DNA of 61,344 bases from Minisyncoccia bacterium (GTDB lineage Bacteria; Patescibacteriota; Minisyncoccia; Moranbacterales; GCA-2747515). Location: the NCBI GenBank assembly GCA_041738235.1, contig JBGSQF010000013.1, forward strand, positions 1 to 61,344. Reading direction: 5' to 3'. How positions within the stretch are numbered: the stretch's first letter is position 1; each line of letters begins with the position of its first letter. The translations under genes and the position numbers were made by a program. The notes under the pieces are model-generated. The model had not been told where the DNA came from. It saw only the letters and a program-made list of their open reading frames with translations, and ran no database searches. Shown here one piece after another: positions 12,550-36,026 of the stretch.

Positions 12550-13737
12550 ATGAAGCTTTGGTTCATAAAATTTGGTAAGGCTTTGTCAGCGCTTAAAAGG
12601 GAAGGGCTCATTCGAGGAGGAAGACGCATTCTCACCTCTTTTTTTGCATTATTTCGAAAAGTAGGGAGCGGAGATATTCTATTTATTACCGGAGGACTGG
12701 GGGATAGTGCATTGTATCGATCGTGGCACGTGGCGGAGGAGCTGGAGTTGCAGGGTTTCAAGTGCGCTGTAACAGTTCAGGACAATCCTTTTTTACTTCG
12801 GTACGTTGAACGGTTTTCGGTGTTTATCTTTCATCGAGTCATGGTGACGCCATCGGTAAGAAAGATGATCGAAGATATTAAGGTTCAACACAAAACGATC
12901 ATATTTGAGACGGATGACCTGGTATACGATGCAGAGTATCTGAAACATATGGATATGATGCGGAATATGAACGCATTCGAGAAGATGCAATATCAGGGTG
13001 GCGTGGGGGCGGAGATCCTTGCCGATCCATATGTTTCTGTATGCACCACCACGACCACATATCTTGCTGATAAACTTCGCGATCGGGGTAAGAAGGTGTT
13101 TATTGTACCTAATCGACTTACCAAAGAAGATGTTCATATGGCATCTCAGATCACTCCTCATTACTCATTGCCACATTCAGATACGGTGGCCATTGGTTAC
13201 TTTTCTGGTACCAAGAGTCATGACAAGGATTTTGCGGTGGCTGCCCCGGCATTGCGAGATATTTTGGAGAAATATCCCCAAACACGACTTCTTCTTGCGG
13301 GGCCATTAGAGTCTGGAAGTATCTTAGCCTCATTTACTGATCGTATCGAGGCGATCCCATATGTACCAAGGGAGGAACATTTCAAAAATGTCGCTCGCGT
13401 TGATATTAATATTGCTCCACTGGAAATAGGGAACCCTTTTTGTGAATCAAAGTCGGAACTGAAGTTCTTTGAGGCGGGCATTGTGGGGGTTCCGACGGTA
13501 GCGAGTGCTACACAAACATTTCGTGACGCGATCGCTGACGGTGTAGATGGATGTTTGGCCAGTACGGGGGAGGAATGGTATGATAGAATCTCTCGTTTAG
13601 TGGAAAATGAAAACTTTCGGAAGAATATGGGAGAACTAGCGCAACGCACCACGCTGCTTCGGTATACTACAAAGAGTGCGAGGAATGAGGAATATTATCA
13701 ATTTTTAAGGAGACATATTAAGCATGTAAAAATATAA
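12550..13737 (+). CDS. GT-B glycosyltransferase (family 1/4-like)
   Basis: C-terminal GT-B signature ESKSELKFFEAGIVGVPTVAS...DGVDG. Confidence 0.8.
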   Translation: MKLWFIKFGKALSALKREGLIRGGRRILTSFFALFRKVGSGDILFITGGLGDSALYRSWHVAEELELQGFKCAVTVQDNPFLLRYVERFSVFIFHRVMVTPSVRKMIEDIKVQHKTIIFETDDLVYDAEYLKHMDMMRNMNAFEKMQYQGGVGAEILADPYVSVCTTTTTYLADKLRDRGKKVFIVPNRLTKEDVHMASQITPHYSLPHSDTVAIGYFSGTKSHDKDFAVAAPALRDILEKYPQTRLLLAGPLESGSILASFTDRIEAIPYVPREEHFKNVARVDINIAPLEIGNPFCESKSELKFFEAGIVGVPTVASATQTFRDAIADGVDGCLASTGEEWYDRISRLVENENFRKNMGELAQRTTLLRYTTKSARNEEYYQFLRRHIKHVKI

Positions 13738-13757
13738 GCATGTAAACATAGGGAAAT

Positions 13758-14109
13758 ATGAATGAGTTTCAGAAAACGCTTGAGAGGAAGATGGATGAGT
13801 TTGTGCATGCGTGCTATGCTATAACAAAAGTCTTTCCAAGGGAGGAGTTGTTTGGATCTTCTTCTCAGCTTCGTAGAGCATCATTATCAGTTATTCTTAA
13901 TTTTCTGGAAGGATTTGGTCGACAAAGAACTGCAGTAAAGAAAAATTTTTGGGAAATATCGTATGGGTCTCTGAAAGAATCAATGTATCTTTTAAGGTTT
14001 TGTAAGGACGAGATTTTGTTCTGAGCGTCAAGCAAGCAAGGCGATCGCCTTGGGGGAGGAAATAGGTGCTATGCTGTGGAAGATGATCCGATCTCTTGAT
14101 AAAAAATGA
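13758..14109 (+). pseudogene. four-helix-bundle protein (23S rRNA intervening-sequence protein family), frameshifted
   Basis: Family signature FPREELFGSSSQLRRASLSVILNFLEG. Frame 0 stops at 14022-14024. The family-typical C-terminus ERQASKAIALGEEIGAMLWKMIRSLDKK* continues in the +1 frame to 14109. Confidence 0.6.
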
Positions 14110-14159
14110 TCATTCTCATTTGCTGATATGTCCCCATGCTGAAATGTTTAAATGTTTAA

Positions 14160-14945
14160 ATGCTTATGGCCCGTCATCACGAAAACTATTTTGAGCTTAT
14201 TTGGATGCTTGCCAAGACCGATTTTAAGCTTCGTTATCAGGGGTCGGCTTTGGGGTATGTTTGGGCTCTGCTTAAACCGCTACTTATGTTCCTTATATTG
14301 AATTTTGTATTTTCGTCGCTTTTTAACGCTCGCGGGAGTGGGATAGAACACTACTCCCTTCAGCTTTTAGTGGCTATCATGATGTTTAACTTTTTTGGCG
14401 AGGGATCAAGCGCTGGAATGCAGTCGCTTCTCAATAAATCTCAGTTGGTTACAAAGATCTATGTACCGAGATGGACGATAATTTTTGCTGCAACACTCAA
14501 TAGTGCAATGATATTTTTGATGAATCTTGTGGTGATCGTATTGTTTTTTTCTTGGTATCAATATCTTCCCAGTTTGGCCTCGATCGCGATGTTCTTTGTT
14601 TCATCAATATCCATCTTTGTTCTTGTGGTGTCGTTTGCTTTTTTTACAGCGCCGCTTTTTGTTCGCTTTCGCGATCTCTCGCTGATTTGGGAGGTGATCA
14701 TTTCACTTTTATTCTATATGACTCCAATTTTTTATCCGCTTCAGATGCTTCCCGCAAATGTTCAACAACTTCTTCTTCTCAATCCTATGGCATTTATTAT
14801 CCACTTTACAAAAGAATCCCTTGTTTCTAATCATTTTGCTGAGCTCTGGCAGTACGGGATGTTCTTCTTGATTCTTGCTTCAGGATTTGCATTAAGTATC
14901 TGGTTATATAATAAACTTGCTCCTAGAATTGCTGAGGAAATGTAG
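14160..14945 (+). CDS. ABC-2 type polysaccharide/teichoic-acid exporter permease (Wzm/TagG-like)
   Basis: FKLRYQGSALGYVWALLKPLLMFLILNFVF signature. Six TM helices, 261 aa. Confidence 0.85.
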   Translation: MLMARHHENYFELIWMLAKTDFKLRYQGSALGYVWALLKPLLMFLILNFVFSSLFNARGSGIEHYSLQLLVAIMMFNFFGEGSSAGMQSLLNKSQLVTKIYVPRWTIIFAATLNSAMIFLMNLVVIVLFFSWYQYLPSLASIAMFFVSSISIFVLVVSFAFFTAPLFVRFRDLSLIWEVIISLLFYMTPIFYPLQMLPANVQQLLLLNPMAFIIHFTKESLVSNHFAELWQYGMFFLILASGFALSIWLYNKLAPRIAEEM

Positions 14946-14973
14946 GGGTTATGTAGATCAGTTGAGAAAAAGC

Positions 14974-15711: not shown

Positions 15712-15753
15712 TTTGTGATCGCCAAGATACTATAATTGACTATTGAGGAGTTA

Positions 15754-16812: not shown

Positions 16813-16942
16813 CTTGATAGTACGGTTTTAGTATAGAAGTTCTGATGATTATTTCAAAATAATCATCGAGTTGGGTTATGTTTGTAAAAAGATTGAAAAA
16901 AGTGTTGAGACATTGGCGAAGTAATATGCAAGATATGAACAT

Positions 16943-17467
16943 ATGAAAAAAGGAGTTACGATTTGGCTTACGGGTCTGCCTTGTAGTGGTAAGACTACCA
17001 TAGCCCTTGAGATCGAGAGGTATTTTAAGAAGAATAATCTTCCCGTTCAGCGCTTGGACGGAGATGTTGTTCGTGGGACTCTTAGTAAAGACCTTGGTTT
17101 TTCCAAGGAAGACCGCGATAAGAATATTGAGCGCATTTCTTATGTTGCTCAGATGCTTGTGAATAATGGTGTGAATGTTGTAGTGGCATTTGTTTCACCG
17201 TATAGAAAGATGCGTGACTTTGCTCGAAGTGTTTGTCTAAATTTCTGCGAAGTCTATGTGAAATGCGATGTGGAAGAATGTATGAAACGAGATGTGAAAG
17301 GAATGTATAAAAAAGCTCTTAGTGGAGAGATCAAGGATTTTACTGGAGTGCAGGATCCTTACGAGGAACCGGAACACCCTGATGTTATTGTGGATACAAG
17401 GAAACACTCCCTGAAGGATTGTGTAAAACAGATAATTGTGGACTTGGAAGAGAGAAAAGACGAATAG
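16943..17467 (+). CDS. cysC: adenylylsulfate (APS) kinase
   Basis: P-loop GLPCSGKTT, LDGDVVR, and the 174-aa length typical of CysC. Confidence 0.9.
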   Translation: MKKGVTIWLTGLPCSGKTTIALEIERYFKKNNLPVQRLDGDVVRGTLSKDLGFSKEDRDKNIERISYVAQMLVNNGVNVVVAFVSPYRKMRDFARSVCLNFCEVYVKCDVEECMKRDVKGMYKKALSGEIKDFTGVQDPYEEPEHPDVIVDTRKHSLKDCVKQIIVDLEERKDE

Positions 17468-17492
17468 TTTTTGACGCCTTAGAGGATGAGAT

Positions 17493-18350
17493 ATGACGTA
17501 TTCTATTGTCAAAACATTTAAGAAATTTTTTAAGAAAAGACCGTTTCACATAGTGGCTCTTTTGTCTGTGCGTAATGAAGAACAATATATGGAGAGATGT
17601 CTCAGGCATCTTATTCAACAGGGGATCGATGTATATATTATTGATAATGACTCTGAGGATAACACACGAGAAATTGCTGAGAAATTTCTCGGCCATGGGG
17701 TGATGCATATTGAACGTTTTCCTTATAATGGATACTTTGACCATGTTGGGATTCTTCAGAGGAAGGAGGGGTTGTCGCGGGAAATTGATGCTGACTGGTT
17801 TATCCATCATGATGCTGATGAAATTCGTGAGGCCCCCTTGCCGTATAAGACTCTTTATGAAGCTATATATGATGTCGATAAACAAGGGTATAATGTTATC
17901 AACTTTGATGAATTTGTTTTTACTTCAACAGATCCCGAAGAATCTTTTGAGGGAAAGGATTATGTGTCTGAGATGGGATATTACTATTTTTTTGAACCAG
18001 GAATAATGAGGCGCATGAATGCTTGGAAGAAAAATCGGAGCGTTTCAATAGTGGAGAGTGGTGGGCACAGTATTGAATCTTCAAATTTGAGAGTGTTTCC
18101 GGTGAATTTTATATTGCGACATTATATTTATCTGAGTAAGGCTTACGCGGAGAAGAAATATACTGAGAGAAAGTTTTCTGAGAAAGAGATCGAGGAAAGA
18201 GGTTGGCATGGAAGAAGGGCTGTGATTAAACCTGGTGAAGTGATGGTTCCTTCAAAGGAGATTTTAAAGAGATGCAGGAACGATGGAATATGGGACAGGT
18301 CCGATCCATGGAAAAAGCACTACTTCTTGCATAATGGTGAGCGGTACTAA
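17493..18350 (+). CDS. GT-A glycosyltransferase (Glyco_tranf_2_4 / PF13704-like)
   Basis: LSVRNEEQYMERCLRHLIQQGIDVYIIDNDSEDNT ... DADWFIHHDADE. Confidence 0.6.
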   Translation: MTYSIVKTFKKFFKKRPFHIVALLSVRNEEQYMERCLRHLIQQGIDVYIIDNDSEDNTREIAEKFLGHGVMHIERFPYNGYFDHVGILQRKEGLSREIDADWFIHHDADEIREAPLPYKTLYEAIYDVDKQGYNVINFDEFVFTSTDPEESFEGKDYVSEMGYYYFFEPGIMRRMNAWKKNRSVSIVESGGHSIESSNLRVFPVNFILRHYIYLSKAYAEKKYTERKFSEKEIEERGWHGRRAVIKPGEVMVPSKEILKRCRNDGIWDRSDPWKKHYFLHNGERY

Positions 18351-18358
18351 ATAAATAT

Positions 18359-19168
18359 ATGTTTGGTGGTTTTACAGGCACATTATTGAATAGGCCAACT
18401 CCAATTATAATTGGGGGTTTTTATCGTTCAGGAACAAGTTTAGTGCGAAGGATCTTAGATTCCCATTCGGATATCCACTGTCCTTCTGAGATCAAGTTTT
18501 TTAAAGATTTCTATGGAGATTATCCTGCTGATCCTCTTGCTCATGTGAGGTTCTTCTCTACTGTGAAGAATGTGGGTCTTTCGGAAAGTGAGATACTGAA
18601 CGAAAGTCTCAAGTTTTTTGTAAAGCTCCATGAATTAGCAGCGAAGAAGAAGGGAAAAAGAAGGTGGGCTGATAAAAATCCAGATAATCTTCTTTATCTT
18701 GATCACTGGATGCAAGCTCTTAAAGAGATGCAGTTTGTTTTTGTTGTTAGAAATCCGCTTGATGTGATGGCCTCTTTGCTTGAAGTTAAATTTGAGAAAA
18801 CCATACCAGAAGCATTTGAAGAAAAGATCGAAATATACTCCCAGTTTCTTTTACGTGGGATCGATTTTTTTGAGAAAAATAAAGATTTAGCATTTGTTTT
18901 AAAATATGAAAATCTTGTGCAGAACACTGATGATGAATTACAAAAACTCTTTAGCTTTCTTGGTGAAAGGTTTGAGCCAAAAGTTAAGGCAGATTTTGCA
19001 AGTAGTGAAAGGGGTTCTGGTATAGAGGATCCGAAGGTAGGAAATAGAAAAAATATTCATACAGATAGTATAGACCGATGGAAAAGAGATCTCACATCAA
19101 AGCAAGTCGATCTAACCATCAAGAGGATCACTCCATTGATGAAGAGGGTGGGTTGCTCGTGGTCGTAA
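18359..19168 (+). CDS. PAPS-dependent sulfotransferase
   Basis: 5'-phosphosulfate-binding loop GGFYRSGTSLVRR and 3'-phosphate-binding-like VVRNPLDVMAS. Confidence 0.8.
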   Translation: MFGGFTGTLLNRPTPIIIGGFYRSGTSLVRRILDSHSDIHCPSEIKFFKDFYGDYPADPLAHVRFFSTVKNVGLSESEILNESLKFFVKLHELAAKKKGKRRWADKNPDNLLYLDHWMQALKEMQFVFVVRNPLDVMASLLEVKFEKTIPEAFEEKIEIYSQFLLRGIDFFEKNKDLAFVLKYENLVQNTDDELQKLFSFLGERFEPKVKADFASSERGSGIEDPKVGNRKNIHTDSIDRWKRDLTSKQVDLTIKRITPLMKRVGCSWS

Positions 19169-19220
19169 GGATGTTGACCTTTTTGTGCTGTTCGGTTGCA
19201 AGATCTTATTTTAGAAACAT

Positions 19221-20024
19221 ATGAAGGTAGACAAACAACATCGTGAAAGTTTATTCAAAATTATCCGAGGAGCTGGAAAGATGATGATGGATTCTTACCA
19301 TGCCAAGCATATTATTTACAAGAAGAGGGATAGAACTTTGGTTACGGAAGTGGATAGAAATGTTGATAAGAGAATATGTGATGGATTACAAAAACTTTTT
19401 CCCAAAATACCAGTTCTCAGCGAAGAGCGAAAGGATTTGCGGGAAAGATTGAAGGGTGAATGTGTCTGGATCCTCGATCCGCTTGACGGAACTCTTGATT
19501 TTATTGATAAAACGCGGGAATTTAGTGTTATGCTTGGTCTTGTTGTTGAAAACGAGCCAATCTTTGGAATAGTTTATCTTCCAGTGACTAGAGAACTTTT
19601 CTGGTCACATCGGAGAGAAGGATCATTTATATGTATTGATGGGAGGGAGGAAAGTATACGGGTAAGTTCTCGAAATATAAACCATGCAAGACTGCTTGTC
19701 AGTCGTTCTCATTTGGGACAACTTGAAAGTAGGTTGGCGAGAAAGTACTTTGGTAAATCAATAGAAATGGGGTCATCTGGGGTAAAAATGGTTCGAATTG
19801 CCCAAGGAAAAGCTGAAGCCTACATAAATTCCAGTGACAAAAGTTCGGAATGGGATACCTGTGGAGCTACTGTTATTCTTCAGGAGGCTGGTGGGAACAT
19901 CAGTGACATGGATGGTAATATCATTCGGTATAACGGCATAGATTCTCGTCACAGACATGGTTATGTTGCCACCAATGGAGTATGTCACAATGACATTTTG
20001 GAAGCTATTAGGTCTAATAAATAA
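19221..20024 (+). CDS. cysQ: 3'(2'),5'-bisphosphate nucleotidase, IMPase family (CysQ-like)
   Basis: IMPase motifs SEERKD, WILDPLDGTLDF, WDTCGATVILQEAGG. Sits between sulfotransferase and sat. Confidence 0.75.
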   Translation: MKVDKQHRESLFKIIRGAGKMMMDSYHAKHIIYKKRDRTLVTEVDRNVDKRICDGLQKLFPKIPVLSEERKDLRERLKGECVWILDPLDGTLDFIDKTREFSVMLGLVVENEPIFGIVYLPVTRELFWSHRREGSFICIDGREESIRVSSRNINHARLLVSRSHLGQLESRLARKYFGKSIEMGSSGVKMVRIAQGKAEAYINSSDKSSEWDTCGATVILQEAGGNISDMDGNIIRYNGIDSRHRHGYVATNGVCHNDILEAIRSNK

Positions 20025-20029
20025 AAAGT

Positions 20030-24645: not shown

Positions 24646-24656
24646 TAAATAACCTC

Positions 24657-26875: not shown

Positions 26876-26889
26876 TTTTGTTTAATCCC

Positions 26890-27756: not shown

Positions 27757-28739
27757 AAAGTGACGTTTCAATCATAATTGTTAATTATGCCTCAAAGGAG
27801 GATACATTTAAGTGTATCCAAAAGATCAAAGAATATACATCTAAAATCTCCTATGAGATCATTGTTGTTGATAATGCTTCAAGGGAGGACATTGGTACGG
27901 AACTGGTCAAAAAGTATCCAGATGTGATTTTTCTCCAAATGTCTTACAATGCAGGATTTGCTCGGGCAAACAATAGAGGTATTGAGATTTCAGGAGGGAG
28001 GTATGTTTTGCTGCTCAATCCAGACGCATTTATTACTGCAAATTCTGTGGACAGATGTGTCCAAAAGATGGATGCCTATCCCGATATTGTTGCGTCCGGT
28101 TGTCAGCTATTAAATTTGGATGGCAGTAAGCAGTTCTCTGGTGGCTATTTTGAACGAGGGAGACGCTGGATTGTGGAGGTTCCATATTGGAGAAGAGTTG
28201 CCAAGCCGGTGTTTGATCTATTTATAAAGGAGAAACAGCTTGATCCGGATCGTGTAGATTGGATAATAGGGGCTTTTCTTTTGGTCAGAAAGGACCCCCT
28301 GAAAAGAGTTGGGTTATTTGATGAAGATTTCTTTCTCTATGCTGAAGAAATTGAGTTATGTTCTCGTCTTAAGAAGTTTGGTAGGGTGGTTATATTTCGA
28401 GATGTCCAAGTATATCACGTTATGGGCGGATCTTCGAGCTATGCATTTGGGACTGATTGTGTTAATCTATGGGACAGGCGTGAGCGGCAACGTATTCTTT
28501 CTGTTCTTGTTTGGCTTAGAAAACAGTACGGCGTTCCATGGTTTTTGATCTCGCTTAGTTGTTTTATTTTTGCTATTCCATTCTATGCATGTGGAAACAT
28601 TCTTGATGTTCTAAGGGGCAGGCAGACTATTTCCCGGGCATTGTATAAAACTGGTAACTATATCTTAAATTGTTTTGTTTGGCTCTCTTATCTGAGGAGA
28701 ATTATTTCCAATAAACCTTATTTCTATAAAACATTATGA
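27753..28739 (+). CDS. family 2 glycosyltransferase with C-terminal TM helices
   Basis: VSIIIVNYASKEDTFKCI...IIVVDNASRED and LLNPDA. ATG 27753 overlaps the preceding stop (ATGA). Confidence 0.85.
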   Translation: MKSDVSIIIVNYASKEDTFKCIQKIKEYTSKISYEIIVVDNASREDIGTELVKKYPDVIFLQMSYNAGFARANNRGIEISGGRYVLLLNPDAFITANSVDRCVQKMDAYPDIVASGCQLLNLDGSKQFSGGYFERGRRWIVEVPYWRRVAKPVFDLFIKEKQLDPDRVDWIIGAFLLVRKDPLKRVGLFDEDFFLYAEEIELCSRLKKFGRVVIFRDVQVYHVMGGSSSYAFGTDCVNLWDRRERQRILSVLVWLRKQYGVPWFLISLSCFIFAIPFYACGNILDVLRGRQTISRALYKTGNYILNCFVWLSYLRRIISNKPYFYKTL

Positions 28740-30019
28740 GCGATGAAGTTAAACTTATAGCTTTTTATCTGCCACAATTTCATACAATCCCTGAAAATGA
28801 TAAATGGTGGGGAGAAGGGTTTACGGAATGGACGAATGTTCGAAAGGCAAAACCTCTTTTTGATGGTCATTATCAACCTCATGTTCCACACAGTGATATT
28901 GGATATTATAACCTTCGTAACATTGAGACTCAGAAACAGCAGGCAAAAACTGCTCAAAAGTATGGCATTTATGGTTTTTGTTACTATCACTATTGGTTTG
29001 GCGGCAAGAAACTTCTTGAAACGCCATTACAAAATGTCTTACAGCATCCAGAGATCGATCTCCCATTCTGTATATGTTGGGCAAATGAGAATTGGACTAG
29101 GAAATGGGATGGGGCTGAAAAGAAGATTCTCATTGCGCAAAAGCACAGCCCTGAAGATGACTTGGCATTTATTAAGGACGTTATGCCAGCATTAAAAGAT
29201 AGTCGATATATTTTCGTGGATGGCAAGCCTCTTCTTGTGGTTTATCGTCCAGCTTTATTTCCTGATTTCAAGGAAACCGCGAAAATTTGGAGGGCAGAAG
29301 TAAAAAAGAATGGTTTTCCGGGTTTGCATATTGCCCGAGTTGAAAATTTTGATAATGGCGTAGCCCCAGAAAAATTTGGATGTGATATTAATATAGACTT
29401 TTCTCCCGATTTTGATCTTGGTGAGTCGATAAGGTCAAAAAAACCCGCTACTTTTTCCTATGATGATTTGGTGGTGCGGAAGTTATCAAAAATTCGTCCA
29501 TACTCGTTTGTACAGAGTGTTTGTCCTTCCTGGGATAACGCTGCAAGGCGTCAGGATGGGGGTGGTTTTACCTTTGTTCACTCTTCACCAGAAAAATATG
29601 AGTATTGGTTGAAGCATTCAATTAAAAAAACACTTATTGAGGGTGGGCGCTCGGATCATAATATGATTTTTATCAATGCTTGGAATGAGTGGGGGGAGGG
29701 TGCACATTTGGAGCCAGACGAGAAGTATGGCTATGCTTATTTAGAAGCAACAAAAAAAGCTATCCATGATGCTCAAATGGAGGTAAAATCGGGTTTTGTT
29801 TTAGAACAAAAGATATTTAAAGAATTTGGTTCTTTGCTTTTAGAGCGAGGAAAGAATCTCGATGAAATAGCAAGATTAAGTTATGTATTGGAACAAAGAG
29901 AGCAGGAATTAAACCTGATGCGATCGTCGAAGTTTTGGAAAATGCGTGAGGCATGGGAGGGTGTAAAATGGCTGGTGAGAAATCCCCTGAAGTGGACAAA
30001 AAAACATATTCTAAAATAG
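28736..30019 (+). CDS. WbsX-like glycosyltransferase/GH99-like protein with coiled coil and SSKFWKMR tail
   Basis: LIAFYLPQFHTIPENDKWWGEGFTEWTNV is the family signature (PF14307-like). Tail RSSKFWKMREAWEGVKW...*. ATGA overlap with the upstream gene. Confidence 0.8.
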   Translation: MSDEVKLIAFYLPQFHTIPENDKWWGEGFTEWTNVRKAKPLFDGHYQPHVPHSDIGYYNLRNIETQKQQAKTAQKYGIYGFCYYHYWFGGKKLLETPLQNVLQHPEIDLPFCICWANENWTRKWDGAEKKILIAQKHSPEDDLAFIKDVMPALKDSRYIFVDGKPLLVVYRPALFPDFKETAKIWRAEVKKNGFPGLHIARVENFDNGVAPEKFGCDINIDFSPDFDLGESIRSKKPATFSYDDLVVRKLSKIRPYSFVQSVCPSWDNAARRQDGGGFTFVHSSPEKYEYWLKHSIKKTLIEGGRSDHNMIFINAWNEWGEGAHLEPDEKYGYAYLEATKKAIHDAQMEVKSGFVLEQKIFKEFGSLLLERGKNLDEIARLSYVLEQREQELNLMRSSKFWKMREAWEGVKWLVRNPLKWTKKHILK

Positions 30020-30168: not shown

Positions 30169-30197
30169 TATTTTGGGAATTTTCATTGTGCTATAAT
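30169..30197 (+). promoter_or_regulatory. possible extended -10 promoter inside the island
   Basis: TGcTATAAT at 30189-30197 with a poor -35. 15 nt upstream of TTG 30212, implying a very short leader. Confidence 0.35.
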
Positions 30198-30211
30198 AAA
30201 AAAGGTTACTA

Positions 30212-32428
30212 TTGGATAAAGAAATAGCTGTGTTAAAGGTTATACAGAAAGTGCGATATATCGTACGGTCGTCTTGGGCAACATTCCAGAATGAAGGAAT
30301 AATAAGACTTTTTCTTCGTGCGTTCTCTTTCCTTGTTTATGGAAAGGGTGTTTTAAATGTGCGAGAATATGAAAAAAGAAGGAAAGACTTCGATGCATTG
30401 CATGGGATTACTTTGTCGGATGCCATACATTGTCTTAGTGGCGCTGAGGGGGAGGACTACACTAAAGAAAGGTGGAAATTTAGGATGGTTGATATTGTTA
30501 TTCCAATTTACAATGGAATGCAATTTCTGCCTGCTTTATTTGAGAGTGTACTAAAAAATTCCGATATTCCCCATAGGCTAATAGTTGTAGATGATGCAAG
30601 TTCTGATGTTAATGTTTGGCCGTTTTTAGAGGAGATGAAGGAAAAATTTGGTGAGGAAAGAATGATCCTGCTAAAAAATAAAAAAAATTTAGGCTTTGTT
30701 GAAACTGTCAATAAGGCGGTTGGTTATACCAAAAACCATTTTGTTCTACTCAATTCTGATACAGAAGTTCCGAGAGAGTGGCTCTCTCGTTTAATGTTGC
30801 CCATTTTTGAAAATAAAAATATAGCGAGCGTTACACCGTTTTCTAATTCGGCAACTATTTTCAGTTTTCCTATCCCCCAACAGGATAATGATCTATTAAC
30901 TGGGTATTCTTTGAGTGAGATCGATGCGGCTTTTCGTCTCGTGTCAGGTTCGAGGAATAGAATAGCCGTCCCAACTGGGATGGGCTTTTGTATGGGGATA
31001 AACAAAGAAGTAGCTAACGAAATAGGAATGTTCGATGCTGAGAAATTTGGTAGGGGATTTGCTGAAGAAAACGATTGGTGTCAGAGAGCTATCAAGAGGG
31101 GATATAGAAATATAGTAGCGCCAAATGTTTTTGTTTATCACAAACATTGCGCTTCTTTCGATAGTGAAGAAAAGAAACAACTGATCGAAAAAAATCTAAA
31201 GACACTGACGGAAACGTATCCTGGTTATCATAAAGATGTACATGACTTTATAGTAAAAGATCCATTTAAGAAGATACGGGATATTGTTTTGTTTCTCATC
31301 TTGGCAAATCCGAAAAATGAACCAGATCGTCCCATATTGGTCTTTAACCATCTTTTAGGAGGAGGATCAGCTGATTTTATGACAAGAGATATGCAGAATC
31401 GGGTTCAGAGGGGTGCTCAAATATTGGAAGTTTCTTATGATGCACGCAGAAGTGAATATTTTCTCGCTTTTTATTCGGGACCCCATACGATTCGTTATAG
31501 GTTTTCTGATTGGAAAGAATTCGATGATCTTTTTCAGTATTTTGCAATTCAGAAGGTGGAAGTAAACCATATTATTTCATTTAAATATCCCTTGGAGACA
31601 ATCTCCTGGATCGATAGGGTTCGTAGAAATAGAGGTGTTCCTGTAAAATTATACTTACATGACTACTATGCGATATGTCCGAATTACACCTTGGTAAATG
31701 AACTTGGTTCTTACTGTGGTATACCGAATCTTCCAAATGAGCTATCAAGATGTACCACGTGTTTATCTAAGACAAGAACACAGTACACTTTATATACCCC
31801 AGGGAAGGTAGATATCATGCAATGGCGCAAGACTTGGGGACATTTTCTGCTCAATCTGGATGAAATAGTTTGTTTTTCTGAGTCATCAAAAAATATCTTA
31901 TTACGAGCGTATCCGCAACTTACCTCTCGGAGTCTCATAGTTCGCCCACATGAAGTGAATTATCTTGATGAGATTTGGAAGGGACCACGTCGTAGAAATT
32001 CGAATGAACCTTTGAACGTGGGTGTTTTGGGGGGGATCAACTTTGTGAAAGGAGCATCTCTGTTGAAGGAACTTGCTTTAATTATCAAGAAGGGAGAAAT
32101 AAACATGCAAATAGTCATTATTGGAGAATATGTGGAAAAACAGAAGCACAAAAATATTACGGTAACGGGGAAATTTCAACTTAAGGACATTGCTCATCTT
32201 ACAAAAAAATACAAGATTGATATTTTCTTTATTCCTTCGATCTGGCCTGAAACATTTTCTTTTACTGCAGAAGAGGTTATGCAGATGGGATATCCTTTAA
32301 TCGTATTTGATATTGGTGCCCCAGCCGAGAGAGTAAGAAGATATAAAAGGGGGATCATTGTCTCTGAGGTTAGTGCTCAGTTGGCCTATAAGGCACTTCA
32401 AAAATATAATGAAAAGTTAAAAATATGA
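30212..32428 (+). CDS. two-domain glycosyltransferase (N-terminal GT2 plus C-terminal GT-B/GT4-like)
   Basis: GT2 part: VDIVIPIYNGMQFL...LIVVDDASSD, NSDTEV. GT-B part: VGVLGGINFVKGASLL..., PSIWPETFSFTAEEVMQMGYPLIVFDIGA. TTG start, 738 aa. Confidence 0.8.
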   Translation: MDKEIAVLKVIQKVRYIVRSSWATFQNEGIIRLFLRAFSFLVYGKGVLNVREYEKRRKDFDALHGITLSDAIHCLSGAEGEDYTKERWKFRMVDIVIPIYNGMQFLPALFESVLKNSDIPHRLIVVDDASSDVNVWPFLEEMKEKFGEERMILLKNKKNLGFVETVNKAVGYTKNHFVLLNSDTEVPREWLSRLMLPIFENKNIASVTPFSNSATIFSFPIPQQDNDLLTGYSLSEIDAAFRLVSGSRNRIAVPTGMGFCMGINKEVANEIGMFDAEKFGRGFAEENDWCQRAIKRGYRNIVAPNVFVYHKHCASFDSEEKKQLIEKNLKTLTETYPGYHKDVHDFIVKDPFKKIRDIVLFLILANPKNEPDRPILVFNHLLGGGSADFMTRDMQNRVQRGAQILEVSYDARRSEYFLAFYSGPHTIRYRFSDWKEFDDLFQYFAIQKVEVNHIISFKYPLETISWIDRVRRNRGVPVKLYLHDYYAICPNYTLVNELGSYCGIPNLPNELSRCTTCLSKTRTQYTLYTPGKVDIMQWRKTWGHFLLNLDEIVCFSESSKNILLRAYPQLTSRSLIVRPHEVNYLDEIWKGPRRRNSNEPLNVGVLGGINFVKGASLLKELALIIKKGEINMQIVIIGEYVEKQKHKNITVTGKFQLKDIAHLTKKYKIDIFFIPSIWPETFSFTAEEVMQMGYPLIVFDIGAPAERVRRYKRGIIVSEVSAQLAYKALQKYNEKLKI

Positions 32429-34515
32429 CGAAAAAAATGACGTTTCTCCTTTTTATAGCGATGTTCTTTTTTCCGGTAAAGGCGTTTGCTTTGACTTTGG
32501 AAGTGCCTTCTCAGTACGGTTCTATCAAGGATGCGGTGAAAGCGGCTTCGGTTGGTGATCGGATAGAGGTTGCTCCTGGGACGTACTATGGGAACATTGA
32601 AATAAGAAAGAACATCGAGTTGGTCTCTACTGGGGGCTCATCTCAGACGATCCTCGATGGTCAAAATTCCGGTTCGGTAGTTCGTTTTGCTAATGCGCAG
32701 TTCGATGGCGTAACTGTTCCAAGAATTGCAGGGTTCACGATTCGTGGGGGAAACAGTGTCGAGGGACAAGGGGGAGGGATCACATTACAGACTACTGATG
32801 TGATTATTGAGGATAATATTATAACAAGCAATAACTCTAAGATGGATGGTGGTGGGATATTGATAAATCAGGATTCCCAAGCTATCCTTCGACGTAATTC
32901 AATAGTGTCAAATACCGCTAAGCGGTTTGGTGGTGGAATCTTCATCGTGGGTGCTTCACATCCTCTCTTGTATGAAAATACGATCTCAAATAACAGCGCT
33001 CAGGGAGCGGTGGTTTCGGCTGGCGGACCAAGTGGAGGGGGTATATTCGTTGACGGAAATTCTTCTCCACAGATCGTGAATAATCTTATTGAGGACAATG
33101 AAGCGGAATTTGCTGGTGGAGGAATTTCTTTGCGAGTCGGATCAGCTTCTGTTGTTGAAGGGAATACTATCTCTAGGAACAAGTCAGCGTATGGTGGAGG
33201 GTTGCATATAGAAACGGAAGGCACTGGTCCAAAGATCACTTCAAACACGATAACAAATAATCAGGCAAATTTGATCCCCAAATATTCTGGATCGGGATAT
33301 GGTGGGGGTATTTCCATTTACAATAGATCTACCCCAATAATATCTGATAACACAATATCAGAGAACTTTGCTGCGCAAGGAGGTGGTGGAATAGTAAGTA
33401 GTGAAAATGCAGACTCTGTTGTTACAGGGAACACTATTTCTAATAATTCAACGACAACATCTTCCGGTTACTATGAAGGGGGTGGTATTTATGTGGCAAG
33501 TTCCACCATGAGAATCAATAATAATGCAATTTATCTTAATGGGGCGAGGTTGGGGGGTGGAGTCGCGCTTTTAGACGGTGCAATTGTTACAATACAAAAC
33601 AATACCATTGTGAAGAATATCTCCCCGTATACCCCAGAAAGACCTTCGGGAGGGGGTATATTTGTTCGGAGTCTTGCGACGAGTGCGAATATAGTGAACA
33701 ACATTATAACGCAGAATCAAGAGTATCAGATCTTTGAAGAAACAAAGCGAGCATCTTTTCGTTTTAATATGGTCAATAATGATAGTCGCGGAATATATTA
33801 TAATTGGAACTCAGGAGCTATAACCAATATTGCCAATCTAGATGCTAGTAGTTTGATTGATGCATCGGATAACTTTAGTGGGATTGAATCATTTCAAAAT
33901 CCTACTGGGAATGATTTCCGTCTTACAATGTTGTCTGAAGCTATTGATAAATCGGGTATTGCCACTCTTTCTAGCTATGACCGTAGAGGATTCTTTCGTA
34001 CGGGAACCAAGCCTGATGTCGGAGCGTATGAATATACTACGGCATCCAGTAGTCCATCATTGGTATATCGTTTCTGGAGTGATACGTATAAGCACCATTT
34101 TTTTACCATATCAAAAAGTGAGAGAGATCAGATAATGAGTACCTATAAAAATAAAGAATGGAGATATGAAGGGATAGCTTTTCGTGCGTATACACTAACT
34201 GATTGTTCTTCTGAGAGAGTATATCGTTTTTGGAGTGATACATACCGTGGGCATTTCTATACTATATCTTCAGCCGAAAAGAACTTAGTTATAAGCTCTT
34301 ACCCTGATAATGTATGGCGTTACGAAGGAGAGGCTTATTGTGCAAAATCTTCAAGTTCTGTAAATGCAGTGCCTCTATATCGTTTTTGGAGTGACACGTA
34401 CAATGGACACTTCTACACCGCGAGCTCTGCGGAAAAGAATTTTATAATCCAGAACTATCCTAGTAATATTTGGCGGTATGAACAAGTCGGATATTATGTT
34501 TATCCAGAGGTATAA
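32425..34515 (+). CDS. secreted right-handed parallel beta-helix (PbH1) repeat protein with three C-terminal YRFWSDTY..HFYT modules
   Basis: Signal peptide MTKKMTFLLFIAMFFFPVKAFA. Many ~22-aa turns with GGGI and N..I..N. ATGA overlap with the upstream GT. Confidence 0.8.
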   Translation: MTKKMTFLLFIAMFFFPVKAFALTLEVPSQYGSIKDAVKAASVGDRIEVAPGTYYGNIEIRKNIELVSTGGSSQTILDGQNSGSVVRFANAQFDGVTVPRIAGFTIRGGNSVEGQGGGITLQTTDVIIEDNIITSNNSKMDGGGILINQDSQAILRRNSIVSNTAKRFGGGIFIVGASHPLLYENTISNNSAQGAVVSAGGPSGGGIFVDGNSSPQIVNNLIEDNEAEFAGGGISLRVGSASVVEGNTISRNKSAYGGGLHIETEGTGPKITSNTITNNQANLIPKYSGSGYGGGISIYNRSTPIISDNTISENFAAQGGGGIVSSENADSVVTGNTISNNSTTTSSGYYEGGGIYVASSTMRINNNAIYLNGARLGGGVALLDGAIVTIQNNTIVKNISPYTPERPSGGGIFVRSLATSANIVNNIITQNQEYQIFEETKRASFRFNMVNNDSRGIYYNWNSGAITNIANLDASSLIDASDNFSGIESFQNPTGNDFRLTMLSEAIDKSGIATLSSYDRRGFFRTGTKPDVGAYEYTTASSSPSLVYRFWSDTYKHHFFTISKSERDQIMSTYKNKEWRYEGIAFRAYTLTDCSSERVYRFWSDTYRGHFYTISSAEKNLVISSYPDNVWRYEGEAYCAKSSSSVNAVPLYRFWSDTYNGHFYTASSAEKNFIIQNYPSNIWRYEQVGYYVYPEV
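34060..34512 (+). repeat. three tandem ~47-50 aa protein modules (DUF5648-like)
   Basis: The three modules are LVYRFWSDTYKHHFFTISKSE..WRYEGIAF, RVYRFWSDTYRGHFYTISSAE..WRYEGEAY and PLYRFWSDTYNGHFYTASSAE..WRYEQVGY. Confidence 0.7.
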
Positions 34516-34658
34516 GCGAAGTTTTCGTGGATCTAGCTGAGCTGTCAATGCAAAAGGGTTCGCAGTCAATAATGATGTCGTTTTGGGACTGTTGTACCCA
34601 TCTCGTTCTGTAGGAGTACCCTGTACAAATCAAGGTGCAGAGATGATGTAATAGAATT

Positions 34659-36026
34659 ATGAAGAAGAATGTGAACAGGGAATCTTTATTTTCGCAACTA
34701 ATTTTATTTTTGAGGAGGGCTGACCTTTTTTATTTTTCTGTCTTAGGAGTTCTTTTTTTTGTTATTTTTAGGGCAAATATTTTGGTACCGCTTGTCAATG
34801 AGGACTTTGATCTCAACGCATTCGGTAAAACGACAACTCAGCTATTTGATGCTTGTGTTCACCAGTATCTTGGGTGGAATGCTAGAATTGGGGATATTTT
34901 ATCCTTGATTCTGAGTACTATCCCAATCGATATTTACAATACTTTTAATGCAGTTGCTACGTTGCTTTTTATATTGGTAATGGTATATATCGCAAAGATT
35001 CCTTTGAACAGGGTTTCAAAAATAGCTCGGGTAAATGCGGTGATCACAGCTTTCTTTTTGCTTGTATTTCTTGTGTATAGACCTGGGGAAGTTTTTTTGT
35101 GGAGAACGGGTTCTGCAAATTATTTCTATCCAGCTCTTTTTATCTTACTTTTTTCTATACCGTGGGTTCATTTGTTTTTTAACGGGAGGGATGTCTTTTC
35201 TGAAATAAAGACACGTTTATTAAGGAATGCGGGATCTTTACTATATATTGTTACGGGTATTGTTATTGGTCACGCAAATGAGAATAGCTCGCCTGTCATA
35301 GCTTTATTTTTGGTGATAAATCTAACCGTTCAGTTTTTGAGGCGTGAAAAAATTAGGTTTTGGATGATCGGGTCGTTTGTTAGTCTTTCTATTGGAGTAA
35401 TTCTTTTATTATTTGGACCCAGTACGCAACATCGTATAGAATTTTACTCGAACGTATTTGGTGTTTCATCCTCACCGGTAAGTCTATTTCTTGATAATGT
35501 TATCAGTGTTACATACTCGTTCTTGCACTTTGGGGTCTATGTTTTTGTACTCATGGTGTTTACATATTTTTTGGTAAAATCAAAATCGAAAAAAATCTTT
35601 TTGCGGTTTTCCATTCTTTATTTTCTTCTGGCTTTATTTTGTGCATTTATTCTGGCTGCAGCGCCTTACCAGGAGCCTAGAGCATACTTTATATCTTCTG
35701 TATTTCTTATATTGGGCGTGATCCATTGTTTGTATTATTTGCAGGATTATGAAAAAGAAGTGTTATTTTTAACGGGTATTGTTATTATTTTTTATTCCCC
35801 ATTCCTTTTGGGTGAATATGGAAATATGCAAAAGAGGCATTATTGGCAATTAGAGCGAATTCGTGTTATTGAGGAATCATTGGATGATACTGGAAATATA
35901 CTGATCCCTAAAATGCCAATGACCTCATCACAGCTGGTTCTTGTGGGTGGGACTGAAGATGAGTCCATAAGAATGAGTCGTTACTTTCACCTATCTCAGG
36001 ACAGAAGGGTGTTAATTGAAAAATAA
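34659..36026 (+). CDS. polytopic membrane protein (about 12 TM), candidate GT-C-type transferase, polymerase or ligase
   Basis: 455 aa, hydrophobic throughout with one larger loop. Last gene of the glycan island. No family recognised with confidence. Confidence 0.55.
   Translation: MKKNVNRESLFSQLILFLRRADLFYFSVLGVLFFVIFRANILVPLVNEDFDLNAFGKTTTQLFDACVHQYLGWNARIGDILSLILSTIPIDIYNTFNAVATLLFILVMVYIAKIPLNRVSKIARVNAVITAFFLLVFLVYRPGEVFLWRTGSANYFYPALFILLFSIPWVHLFFNGRDVFSEIKTRLLRNAGSLLYIVTGIVIGHANENSSPVIALFLVINLTVQFLRREKIRFWMIGSFVSLSIGVILLLFGPSTQHRIEFYSNVFGVSSSPVSLFLDNVISVTYSFLHFGVYVFVLMVFTYFLVKSKSKKIFLRFSILYFLLALFCAFILAAAPYQEPRAYFISSVFLILGVIHCLYYLQDYEKEVLFLTGIVIIFYSPFLLGEYGNMQKRHYWQLERIRVIEESLDDTGNILIPKMPMTSSQLVLVGGTEDESIRMSRYFHLSQDRRVLIEK

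Follow-up and report, generated by a model that had tools for sequence, protein, structure and literature searches.

The WbdD systems of Escherichia coli O9a and Klebsiella O3 and O5 and the WbbB system of Klebsiella O12 combine an ABC-2 permease and a Wzt ATPase with cytoplasmic chain assembly by several glycosyltransferases (GTs). In all characterised terminated systems the protein that bears the terminator contains a coiled-coil ruler and a C-terminal membrane helix, and each comes with a carbohydrate-binding module (CBM) on Wzt; sulfate is absent from the terminators listed (Kelly et al. 2024, PMC11231755). Dedicated PAPS synthesis is coupled to PF13469-type carbohydrate sulfotransferases in the rhizobial systems for sulfated surface polysaccharides and Nod factors (NodPQ with NodH, NoeE, KpsS and LpsS), where these enzymes modify secreted or surface glycoconjugates (PMC11625862). 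Wall teichoic acid and secondary cell-wall polymer export through TagGH and the assembly of S-layer glycans, both in monoderm bacteria, offer a further comparison. Marine and cyanobacterial clusters for sulfated capsular or extracellular polysaccharides (e.g. Vibrio sp. KMM 8419 and Cobetia marina) also contain sulfotransferases, and sulfation of their polysaccharides has been proven; the hosts are Gram-negative, with assembly mostly of the Wzx/Wzy or Kps type and PAPS drawn from a general pool.

Here we describe a block of about 24 kb (12550–36026) in a 61,344-nucleotide stretch of DNA (the window) from a 408 kb contig. Sequence, profile and structure evidence identifies Sat, CysC, a CysQ-like PAP phosphatase, two sulfotransferases (ST1 and ST2), ten GT genes and a Wzm/Wzt exporter. 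Sat, CysC and the phosphatase are interleaved with ST1 and ST2, and are flanked by the GTs and the exporter. The GC content is 37–41% within the block and 43–48% in the flanks. Judged from sequence comparison, the host is a CPR bacterium, placed with Candidatus Moranbacteria by its PBP2 homologues, all named examples of which are Candidatus Moranbacteria/Moraniibacteriota (53–57% identity).

The block shares its mode of export and its set of cytoplasmic GTs with the WbdD/WbbB systems, but CPR bacteria are not expected to make LPS and the product is therefore unlikely to be an O antigen. CPR cells are generally regarded as monoderm-like, so the way the polymer is exported and where it probably ends up would be comparable to TagGH and S-layer systems, and TagH is among the best NCBIfam names of the ATPase. 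In contrast to teichoic acid, the polymer would be glycosidic, given ten GT genes, and would apparently carry sulfate instead of phosphodiester links; TagO/WecA, TagB/F, an LCP ligase and an O-oligosaccharyltransferase were not found in the window. It counts against the glycan-locus reading that the block lacks an initiating phosphoglycosyltransferase, a ligase and an LCP enzyme; by NCBIfam, the upstream PF00953 gene is MraY rather than WecA. The block resembles the rhizobial systems in its dedicated PAPS supply, but its Sat is a homomeric ATP sulfurylase rather than CysDN/NodPQ, CysQ is included, and a Wzm/Wzt assembly block encloses the sulfotransferases. The ST1 cassette is itself present in Mesorhizobium genomes (L018, L021), and to our knowledge a coiled-coil architecture of the ST2 type has not been described for rhizobial sulfotransferases. 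The marine and cyanobacterial clusters differ from this Wzm/Wzt locus of a CPR bacterium, which has Sat, CysC and CysQ inside it.

Sulfate activation and PAP recycling genes

The genes for PAPS synthesis and recycling are as follows.

16943–17467, + strand: CysC, APS kinase (APS to PAPS); Pfam APS_kinase, 197 bits; P-loop GLPCSGKTT
19221–20024, + strand: CysQ-like 3'(2'),5'-bisphosphate nucleotidase (PAP removal); Pfam Inositol_P, 175 bits
20030–21112, + strand: Sat, ATP sulfurylase (sulfate to APS); Pfam ATP-sulfurylase, 262 bits, and PUA_2, 91 bits; QTRNPPHRSHE and GRDHAGVG

An earlier note on this DNA had quoted five motifs for these enzymes and the sulfotransferases, and all are present, each exactly once per named ORF: the two Sat motifs and GLPCSGKTT as listed, WILDPLDGT in the CysQ-like protein, and RSGTS in both ST1 (18359–19168) and ST2 (21097–22083). 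The family searches that it proposed are borne out for APS_kinase, ATP-sulfurylase, Inositol_P and ST1, which pass Pfam thresholds, but not for ST2, which scores 16.6 bits against a cutoff of 27. Among NCBIfam models, CysC exceeds the TIGR00455 cutoff (215 versus 139 bits) and Sat reaches 382 bits against the NF003166 cutoff of 387. The top model for the CysQ-like protein is CysQ (TIGR01331, 185 bits, under the equivalog cutoff of 229), followed by HisN at 120 bits.

Related loci occur in other CPR genomes. The close relative L002 has the order MraY–GT4a–Wzm–GT2–GT8–CysC–GT2_4a–ST1–CysQ–Sat–ST2 at 76–95% amino-acid identity, so that, by the synteny comparison suggested earlier, the genes do not lie together by chance. 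Parcubacteria loci L075 and L076 retain a reduced core (GT4a–Wzm–GT2b–Wzt–(CysC+CysQ fusion)–ST2; 42–67% identity), and Moraniibacteriota locus L006 has CysC–CysQ–ST1 adjoining large GT2 proteins. Together with sat and cysC in dozens of CPR/DPANN genomes (He et al. 2021, PMC7906910), these loci, in at least three other CPR contigs (L002, L006, L075–L077), indicate that the earlier description of the island as unusual for a CPR-like organism was overstated.

He et al. read the CPR/DPANN sat, cysC and cysN genes as sulfate reduction (PMC7906910). Sat and CysC could likewise serve assimilatory or dissimilatory sulfur metabolism here (PAPS or APS to sulfite), their position in a glycan block being incidental, but we consider this very unlikely. 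A Pfam scan of about 60 ORFs in the 61 kb window of the 408 kb contig found no PAPS/APS reductase or sulfite reductase, as the earlier note had stated, and no cysteine synthase. Sat and CysC are intermixed with two sulfotransferase genes and a PAP phosphatase gene in an order kept in L002, and the L075 fusion of CysC to the orthologous CysQ domain, adjoining ST2, is sensible only if sulfotransferases consume the PAPS. Use of PAPS by sulfotransferases acting on an exported glycan, which the earlier note had also preferred to assimilation, is the best-supported reading, because the block surrounds Sat, CysC and CysQ with two sulfotransferases, ten GT genes and Wzm/Wzt. It is supported further by the arrangement kept in L002, by the CysC–CysQ fusion directly upstream of the ST2 orthologue and adjoining Wzm/Wzt in a second CPR lineage, and by the fusion, in other phyla, of ST1's partner GT to Wzt and of ST2 to polymerase GTs.

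Glycosyltransferases, exporter and accessory genes

The remaining features of the block, apart from the sulfotransferases and the GT that adjoins ST1, are these.

12550–13737, + strand: GT4a, GT-B glycosyltransferase (Glycos_transf_1/GT4-type); Pfam PF13692/PF00534
13758–14024, + strand: small 23S-rRNA-IVP-family four-helix-bundle protein; Pfam PF05635, 70 bits
14160–14945, + strand: Wzm, ABC-2 type polysaccharide export permease; Pfam ABC2_membrane, 54 bits
14917–15711, + strand: GT2a, GT2 glycosyltransferase; Pfam Glycos_transf_2, 91 bits
15736–16812, + strand: GT8 glycosyltransferase; Pfam Glyco_transf_8, 144 bits
22277–23375, + strand: pseudogene copy of the GT-B gene at 25574–26875; no start codon, frameshift near 22932, in-frame stop
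23536–24645, + strand: GT2_4b, PF13704/GT92-like GT with C-terminal coiled coil and SSKFWKLR tail (aa 350); Pfam PF13704, 49 bits, PF01697, 33 bits
24474–24570, + strand: 42-nt tandem repeat in the GT2_4b coiled coil, 2.3 copies; TRF, 96% matches
24594–25403, + strand: short Wzt/TagH-type ABC exporter ATPase; Pfam ABC_tran, 81 bits
25574–26875, + strand: u433, GT-B (GT4-like) GT with 77-aa coiled-coil helix and SSRFWKMR tail; assigned by structure
26878–27756, + strand: GT2b, GT2 glycosyltransferase with coiled coil and SKFWKLR tail (aa 275); Pfam Glycos_transf_2, 110 bits
27708–28739, + strand: GT2c, GT2 glycosyltransferase with C-terminal hydrophobic segment(s) (TM-like segment, aa 274); Pfam Glycos_transf_2, 64 bits
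28736–30019, + strand: WbsX-family GT with coiled coil and SSKFWKMR tail (aa 397); Pfam PF14307, 436 bits
30212–32428, + strand: bifunctional GT2 + GT1, candidate polymerase; Pfam Glycos_transf_2 (aa 95–270), Glycos_transf_1 (aa 600–731)
32425–34515, + strand: secreted or membrane-anchored right-handed beta-helix (NosD/CASH) protein with C-terminal DUF5648 repeats; Pfam Beta_helix 115, NosD 57, DUF5648 100 bits
34659–36026, + strand: DUF6056 polytopic membrane protein with at least nine hydrophobic segments; Pfam PF19528, 163 bits; TM scan

The count of about ten GTs given previously is accurate: nine are confirmed by Pfam (one GT4/GT1, three GT2, one GT8, two PF13704, one WbsX and the GT2 + GT1 bifunctional protein) and the tenth, u433, is GT-B by structure. 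It has no significant Pfam family, with just two sub-threshold matches of coiled-coil type, but its AF2 model (pLDDT 88) has ManT, BshA, MshA and PimA as best Foldseek matches, and its 909 representative homologues are often fused to GT2 or GT4 domains. The pseudogene matches u433 by tblastn at 64% identity over aa 5–223 and, in another frame, at 51% over aa 223–370, and the two form a DNA repeat (D1) that is 74% identical. GT4a has orthologues in L002 (89% identity) and L075 (55%), and GT2b is 50% identical in L075. GT2a probably starts downstream of the listed TTG. GT2c may be a GtrB/ArnC-like polyprenyl-phosphate sugar synthase. A C-terminal coiled coil followed by a basic S(S)KFWK(L/M)R tail is common to ST2, GT2_4b, u433, GT2b and WbsX.

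Both exporter genes named in the earlier note are confirmed. The top NCBIfam name for Wzm is galactan exporter Wzm/RfbD, and the best names for the ATPase are TagH and galactan Wzt/RfbE, all under their cutoffs; Wzm and Wzt are 62% and 67% identical in L075, respectively. The ATPase has no Wzt_C domain or C-terminal CBM by Pfam. All block genes do lie on one strand, but this layout is not specific to the block because nearly the entire window is on the + strand, and the ATGA overlaps, described as several, number two (at 28736 and 32425).

The 23S-rRNA-IVP-family gene is probably a passenger outside the pathway; similar small genes occur near related loci L017 and L077. The beta-helix protein has an N-terminal hydrophobic segment and could modify or bind the glycan. 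DUF5648 proteins also flank CPR loci L075 and L077. The DUF6056 protein, which has no sequence relative in the PDB, is a candidate GT-C-type extracytoplasmic transferase.

The sulfotransferases and their possible roles

18359–19168, + strand: ST1, PAPS-dependent sulfotransferase (Sulfotransfer_3, TPST/CurM-ST-like); Pfam PF13469, 91 bits, PF00685, 41 bits
17493–18350, + strand: GT2_4a, PF13704-type GT-A glycosyltransferase, conserved partner of ST1; Pfam PF13704/PF00535
21097–22083, + strand: ST2, divergent sulfotransferase and candidate chain terminator; likely start ATG 21109; identified by hhalign, homologues and AF2/Foldseek
21886–21987, + strand: 42-nt tandem repeat (14 aa, two heptads) in the ST2 coiled coil, 2.5 copies; TRF, 93% matches

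Across 22 homologues of ST1, neither the 5'-PSB loop RSGTS nor the 3'-PB segment RNPLDxxASL varies. Profile searches of the PDB identify the CurM sulfotransferase (5e-16) and TPST1/2 (about 1e-14), and there is a weak NCBIfam match to NoeE. Of 56 genome loci with an ST1 orthologue, 40 encode a PF13704-type GT homologue no more than 1.5 kb away from it. This GT is fused to a Wzt nucleotide-binding domain and Wzt_C CBM in at least six loci, such triple fusions being followed by ST1, and apparently to ST1 itself in L031 and L058, where ORF coordinates overlap. Sequence comparisons thus define a new finding, that ST1 and the neighbouring PF13704 GT are a pair conserved across many phyla, the GT often being fused to Wzt and a CBM.

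ST2 is composed of a sulfotransferase head (about aa 9–220), a long coiled-coil helix and a basic SSKFWKLR tail. The earlier note had counted two sulfotransferases, and both appear genuine: despite its sub-cutoff Pfam score, the ST2 family matches the ST1 family by hhalign (99.2% probability, E 1.8e-19), most ST2 homologues carry PF13469/PF00685, and the confident AF2 model (pLDDT 85; helix 236–303, tail helix 306–322) has TPST2/TPST1, CurM ST and Stf9 as best Foldseek matches. Other phyla have ST2 as the N-terminal domain of multi-GT proteins of 800–1500 aa with WbsX, GT1 and GT2 domains (ST2–WbsX–GT1–GT2 in L009), and in P0307 an ST2-like domain is fused to ABC_tran.

Among solved structures, both families come closest to tyrosylprotein sulfotransferases and the CurM polyketide sulfotransferase, and one JGI homologue of ST1 is annotated as a protein-tyrosine sulfotransferase. 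ST1, ST2 or both might accordingly act on tyrosines in proteins, in the manner of TPST and RaxST, or on a lipid or small metabolite. Fold similarity in this superfamily does not predict the acceptor, and non-glycan acceptors seem most unlikely given that both genes lie within a ten-GT block, that other phyla have the partner GT of ST1 joined to Wzt of the polysaccharide exporter and to a CBM, and that ST2 is fused to WbsX/GT1/GT2 domains and to ABC_tran.

For a glycan acceptor, the layout of ST2 suggests a more specific role. Its N-terminal catalytic head, extended coiled coil of variable length and C-terminal tail resemble WbdD and WbbB, and its N-terminal fusion to polymerase GTs in other phyla, alongside a Wzt with a Wzt_C CBM, resembles WbbB in particular. 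The head is a PAPS sulfotransferase rather than a kinase/methyltransferase or Kdo transferase, so sulfate may be the chain cap. The coiled coils of ST2 and GT2_4b contain near-perfect 42-nt (two-heptad) tandem repeats, with two of the ST2 copies 98% identical. Repeat copy number varies, as about 19 aa are missing at this site in the close relative P0258. Coiled coils with the same 14-aa repeat recur in the giant ST2 proteins from other phyla, where they precede an S(T)SW(K/R)xxxPLR motif. As a point against, the ST2 tail has no measurable amphipathicity (muH 0.28, no better than shuffles). We propose ST2 only tentatively as a WbdD/WbbB-like terminator and ruler, an analogy we rate somewhat below an even chance.

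Alternatively, ST1 and ST2 may sulfate internal residues of the repeat unit, with the tails simply tethering enzymes to a membrane complex and no cap or ruler involved, a substantial possibility that itself falls a little short of even. Known bacterial sulfated polysaccharides include the Vibrio and Cobetia capsular polysaccharides, in which sulfate sits within repeat units. Unlike in the WbdD/WbbB systems, the coiled-coil tail of ST2 is shared by four GTs, so that the coiled coil may be a scaffold only. The Wzt of the window also differs in lacking a CBM, which makes a cap less likely in this particular organism; characterised CBM-less exporters carry unterminated chains (PMC11231755). Against repeat-unit decoration, ST2 lies N-terminal to a variable repeat coiled coil and polymerase GTs as in WbbB/WbdD, homologous cassettes of other phyla do have Wzt_C CBMs, and coiled-coil repeat number differs among close relatives.

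In the mechanism we envisage, a membrane-associated complex of several enzymes, joined through the S(S)KFWK(L/M)R tails, would build the polymer on a polyprenyl carrier on the cytoplasmic side, and the polymer would be sulfated with locally made PAPS while CysQ clears PAP. ST1 would act jointly with GT2_4a; if ST2 is a terminator, it would add sulfate at the non-reducing end and stop elongation, its coiled coil setting chain length. The polymer would then be exported through Wzm/Wzt, with possible further modification outside by the DUF6056 and beta-helix proteins. The block is thus probably an ABC-transporter-dependent cell-surface glycan locus with its own sulfate-activation and recycling module, which would give this CPR bacterium a dedicated PAPS supply for a putatively sulfated exported glycan.

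Gene content of the block and its flanks

As predicted from sequence, the route from sulfate through APS to PAPS is complete in the block at 12550–36026, where it is co-located, and conserved, with a CysQ-like PAP phosphatase, two sulfotransferases, ten glycosyltransferases (GTs) and a Wzm/Wzt exporter. Motif search located each of the motifs quoted in the earlier note exactly where that note had put it. The PAPS module, the first sulfotransferase (ST1) and the exporter are assigned as listed.

Sulfation and export genes of the block, with strand and Pfam assignment
14160–14945, + strand: Wzm, ABC-2 permease; PF01061
16943–17467, + strand: CysC (APS kinase); PF01583 at 197 bits, P-loop GLPCSGKTT
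18359–19168, + strand: ST1; Sulfotransfer_3 (PF13469) at 91 bits versus a cutoff of 27
19221–20024, + strand: CysQ-like phosphatase, inositol-monophosphatase fold; Pfam at 175 bits
20030–21112, + strand: Sat (ATP sulfurylase with a PUA-like domain); PF01747 at 262 bits
24594–25403, + strand: Wzt/TagH-type ABC ATPase; PF00005

CysC scores 215 bits against the NCBIfam model TIGR00455, above its cutoff of 139. Sat contains the QxRNPxHxxH and GRDHAG motifs (residues 164 and 258) and reaches 382 bits against NF003166, slightly under the subfamily cutoff of 387. The top NCBIfam model for the phosphatase is CysQ (TIGR01331), at 185 bits and under the equivalog cutoff of 229, followed by HisN at 120; it is a candidate CysQ, with some support from context, since CysC and the orthologous domain form one protein in a Parcubacteria contig (L075). 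The permease and the ATPase lie inside the GT cluster, as had been claimed, and the top NCBIfam names for these exporter genes are galactan exporter Wzm/Wzt and TagH, all under the equivalog cutoffs.

The earlier count of about ten GTs stands. Nine genes are confirmed by Pfam (one GT4/GT1, three GT2, one GT8, two PF13704, WbsX and one GT2+GT1 bifunctional gene), and the tenth is u433, a 433-residue ORF at 25574–26875 that matches no Pfam family and has 909 representative homologues, often fused to GT2 or GT4 domains. Its structure model (pLDDT 88) adopts a GT-B fold nearest to ManT, BshA, MshA and PimA, followed by a 77-residue helix, and u433 is therefore counted as a GT. A PDB sequence search returned no match for u433 as a single sequence and none for the DUF6056 protein encoded at the end of the block. 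Two candidate genes, 22421–22951 and 23130–23420, were rejected; both are pieces of a decayed u433 paralogue (22277–23375), located between the second sulfotransferase gene and a GT gene, which lacks a start codon and is interrupted by one frameshift and by a stop codon in frame. An ORF in a close CPR relative (L002:11525–12088) is a fragment of the same decayed paralogue, at 75% identity.

All ORFs of the block are on the + strand, as first described, an arrangement that is not special because nearly the entire window is on that strand. The several ATGA overlaps that had been reported reduce to two real ones (28736 and 32425). G+C is 37–41% in the block versus 43–48% in the flanks. An initiating polyprenyl-phosphate phosphoglycosyltransferase of the WecA, TagO or WbaP type was not found in the block and may be encoded elsewhere. 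The sole PF00953 gene, at 11353–12462, was considered as a WecA-like initiating transferase and rejected: it scores as MraY (TIGR00445, 189 bits versus a cutoff of 192; WecA, 30 bits) and lies outside the pathway.

Both flanks are housekeeping in character, with ScpA/B, DD-carboxypeptidase and MraY upstream and SecDF, an epimerase, MacB-type permeases, MreBCD, PBP2, GreA and MurJ downstream. All named matches among the best 120 PBP2 homologues belong to Candidatus Moranbacteria/Moraniibacteriota (53–57% identity), with closer relatives at 69–87%; the named matches support placement in the CPR and bear out the description of the host as CPR-like. The contig that contains the window is 407,907 bp long. 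One 82% relative (L078) is syntenic with the window from secF to murJ, and in another contig (L073) mreC lies at the contig start. In a 70% relative, a type II CRISPR-Cas9 locus (Cas9, Cas1 and Cas2; L071:1–4569) is found about 2.6 kb upstream of mreB, at the position occupied in the window by the MacB-type permeases.

SecD (36162–38012) has a PPIC-type peptidyl-prolyl isomerase domain inserted between the P1 subdomains (residues 183–268), and the GrpE encoded at 60256–61206, downstream of hrcA, bears a fused N-terminal NUDIX hydrolase domain. A large DUF4012 protein (979 residues, 49595–52534) follows a GT4 glycosyltransferase (48387–49535); this pair, conserved in L078, possibly forms a further envelope-related module. 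Near the block, just one minus-strand gene is convincing (10438–11259, about 274 residues, without a Pfam match); it sits between DD-carboxypeptidase and MraY, where G+C is higher (47%). L002 has a minus-strand gene call at the equivalent position (3–764). The 485-residue ORF listed for the window gene owes its length to a spurious antisense extension into mraY.

Two further families accompany glycan loci. Small genes of the 23S-rRNA-intervening-sequence family (PF05635) recur in or beside them (window 13758–14024, L077:9177–9536 and L017), and DUF5648-repeat proteins adjoin sulfation/glycan loci in three CPR contigs (window 32425–34515, L075:19003–20883 and L077:9604–11179). The window DUF5648 protein has three repeats at 156-nt spacing (34064–34418). 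That these proteins bind or anchor a sulfated polymer is pure speculation.

The second sulfotransferase and the coiled-coil tails

A Pfam search of 16943–22083 recovers Sat, CysC, the inositol-monophosphatase fold and ST1 above threshold and leaves the second sulfotransferase, ST2 (21097–22083, + strand), under its cutoff, at 16.6 bits versus 27 for Sulfotransfer_3. The earlier note had called both genes sulfotransferases and had listed such a shortfall as counting against its reading; for ST2 it is outweighed by other evidence, and membership in the PAPS sulfotransferases is drawn from profile, homologues and structure model, not from its own Pfam score. The majority of 478 ST2 homologues carry PF13469 or PF00685, and one is annotated as a sulfotransferase in a Parcubacteria genome. 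The ST2 and ST1 family profiles align with 99.2% probability (hhalign, E = 1.8e-19) over the 5'-phosphosulfate loop, a WxxKxP segment and the 3'-phosphate-binding RxPxxxxxSL segment. Across 32 ST2 sequences HRSGTS and R140 are nearly invariant and S148 is invariant; in 22 ST1 sequences, R23–S27 (the 5'-phosphosulfate loop, RSGT[ST]) and R131/S139 (Rx7S) are invariant. The AlphaFold2 model of ST2 (pLDDT 85) consists of a head with a sulfotransferase core and a 68-residue helix. Its top Foldseek matches in the PDB are all sulfotransferases, the closest being TPST2, TPST1, CurM ST, Stf9 and 3-OST.

A shared C-terminal design, in which a predicted coiled coil leads into a conserved basic S(S)KFWK(L/M)R tail, is found in five of the block's proteins: ST2, u433, the PF13704-type GT2_4b (23536–24645), GT2b (26878–27756) and WbsX (28736–30019). 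The coiled coils of ST2 and GT2_4b are encoded in part by a near-perfect 42-nt tandem repeat, present in 2.5 copies at 21886–21987 and 2.3 copies at 24474–24570. The repeat corresponds to 14 residues, or two heptads, so that the coiled-coil register is preserved. ST2 of the close relative has about 19 residues fewer at the repeat site, and the similar copy numbers in ST2 and GT2_4b suggest recent, possibly coordinated, length changes. In giant ST2 proteins from other phyla the head is followed by a 14-residue repeat in two to five copies (ISDRDSEIMGLKQG is an example from L009 and ERDGQINHLNQVVT one from L016), then by an S(T/N)SW(K/R)xxxPLR motif and GT domains. The tails of u433 and WbsX are amphipathic helices. 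The ST2 and GT2_4b tails showed no significant amphipathicity in the same test; membrane binding by the basic (+4) ST2 tail is therefore an assumption.

Recurrence in CPR genomes and across phyla

The island had been expected to be unusual for a CPR organism, and related loci in at least three other CPR contigs instead make it recurrent. Synteny holds in the relatives: gene order from MraY to ST2 is unchanged in a 12 kb contig of the close relative L002, at 76–95% identity, and a reduced core of GT4a (12550–13737 in the window), Wzm, GT2b, Wzt, CysC, CysQ and ST2 is found at 42–67% identity in L075 (a 469 kb contig of a Parcubacteria group bacterium, JGI 3300037810 contig Ga0376277_0000129) and its near-copy L076. 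In a Moraniibacteriota contig (L006), CysC, CysQ and ST1 lie beside large GT2 proteins. The Parcubacteria contigs encode a single 436-residue protein (L075:8698–10008 and L076:4337–5647) in which CysC is fused to a CysQ-like domain of the inositol-monophosphatase fold. In L075 this gene is directly upstream of the ST2 orthologue and adjoins Wzm/Wzt, and Sat is absent within 10 kb on either side.

It is difficult to account for a predicted fusion of APS kinase with PAP phosphatase other than as support for sulfotransferases. Together with the gene context, this fusion argues against use of the PAPS for assimilation, a reading that we disfavour. The genes sat, cysC and cysN occur in dozens of CPR/DPANN genomes and have been interpreted as sulfate reduction (He et al. 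2021, PMC7906910); the present locus offers an alternative for sat and cysC.

The ST1 family is highly conserved, with 442 proteins at E ≤ 1e-5. The 67 genome loci in which it was found are spread over many phyla; Nitrospirota, Desulfobacterota, Chlorobi, Chromatiaceae, Mesorhizobium, Chloroflexota and Verrucomicrobiota are all represented. At the 56 loci with a clear ST1 orthologue, a homologue of GT2_4b or of its paralogue GT2_4a (17493–18350) lies within 1.5 kb of ST1 in 40 and within 400 bp in 33, and 22 have an ST2 homologue, usually directly downstream of ST1. At least six loci, from Desulfobacterota, Chlorobi, Pseudomonadota and others, encode a 700–736-residue protein that joins the Wzt nucleotide-binding domain, a Wzt_C carbohydrate-binding module (CBM) and a C-terminal GT2_4a. 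We found no description of this exporter–GT fusion in the literature searched.

Wzt–CBM–GT2_4a triple fusions, each followed by ST1
L011:7837–9978
L016:1501–3663
L012:7788–9998
L009:4841–6964
L015:3830–5932
L061:6920–9130

Matches to GT2_4a and ST1 within one ORF in L031 and L058 suggest that these two are also fused. In L005, L009, L011, L012, L016, L021, L024 and L053, a protein of 820–1490 residues has the ST2 homologue at its N-terminus and WbsX, GT1 and/or GT2 domains in its C-terminal part; in the window these domains are divided among individual genes (ST2, WbsX and a GT2+GT1 gene at 30212–32428). The cassette Wzt-CBM-GT2_4-ST1-ST2(coiled coil)-GT is present in the cultured strains Mesorhizobium humile VK2B, Allochromatium palmeri DSM 15591 and Thiorhodococcus fuscus KCTC 5701. 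A non-glycan acceptor for the sulfotransferases is suggested only by fold likeness to TPST and CurM ST, and the Wzt and GT fusions speak against such an acceptor. Given these fusions, protein-tyrosine sulfation was also rejected as the primary reading of ST1, for which it had been considered from TPST similarity.

Proposed assembly model and a possible sulfate cap

We propose that the enzymes, grouped into a complex by their shared tails, would assemble the polymer on a lipid carrier at the cytoplasmic face of the membrane, and that the polymer would be sulfated with PAPS made locally and then exported by Wzm/Wzt. Outside the cell, the polytopic DUF6056 protein (34659–36026) and the secreted beta-helix/DUF5648 protein (32425–34515) may further handle it. 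The predicted layout of ST2 (catalytic head, coiled coil and C-terminal tail) resembles that of WbdD and WbbB. In systems of this type the terminator always belongs to a ruler protein that has a coiled coil and a C-terminal membrane helix, a cap-reading CBM is present on every exporter, and methyl, methylphosphate and Kdo are the terminators known so far (Kelly et al. 2024, PMC11231755). By analogy, ST2 could cap the non-reducing end while its coiled coil sets chain length, an idea that we put forward tentatively.

Unlike those exporters, the window Wzt (269 residues) has no Wzt_C CBM by Pfam, which is the main point against capping here; cassettes homologous to this one in other phyla (L004, L011, L016, L021 and L049) do include the CBM. 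With the lack of measurable amphipathicity in the ST2 tail and the presence of coiled-coil tails on GTs as well, this makes sulfation of internal repeat-unit residues, in place of a cap, a serious alternative.

Extended beyond the window, the capping proposal holds that sulfate is a new chain cap in ABC-transporter-dependent assembly and that ST2-type proteins are a new terminator/ruler class reaching from CPR to Proteobacteria, accompanied outside CPR by a Wzt-CBM-GT2_4-ST1 module that builds or reads the sulfated terminus. As a corollary, CPR sat and cysC would serve surface-glycan sulfation, not assimilation or sulfate reduction. We regard this wider proposal as possible but rather doubtful. 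Members of the class would combine a sulfotransferase head, a variable-copy 14-residue-repeat coiled coil and an SxxW(K/R) motif, and might or might not include polymerase GTs. In the searchable library we found no paper linking a sulfotransferase to Wzt, CBMs, coiled-coil chain length or termination, and the single paper found for sulfotransferase and candidate phyla radiation is unrelated.

Cluster-encoded sulfotransferases for sulfated polysaccharides are known, such as rhizobial KpsS/NoeE/NodH with NodPQ (PMC11625862) and those of Vibrio and Cobetia capsules, and ABC-transporter-dependent assembly with coiled-coil terminators is well known (PMC11231755). Three features are new: both of these are predicted to occur together in a CPR bacterium whose block also contains Sat, CysC and CysQ; a repeat-based coiled coil carries a sulfotransferase in the place of the terminator; and the Wzt-CBM-GT2_4-ST1-ST2 cassette is widespread and apparently undescribed.

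Glycan sulfation would reinterpret CPR sat and cysC genes that metagenomic surveys have scored as sulfate-reduction capacity (PMC7906910). A sulfate cap, if true, would be new chemistry beside the few known terminators, and the cassette in cultured strains is a tractable route to asking whether sulfate caps chains and licenses export. The prevailing view is that CPR bacteria live attached to host cells, and their surface chemistry, so far little described, is probably central to attachment. A sulfated wall or surface glycan, strongly anionic and with a dedicated PAPS supply, would give the CPR cell surface a concrete feature that can be tested.
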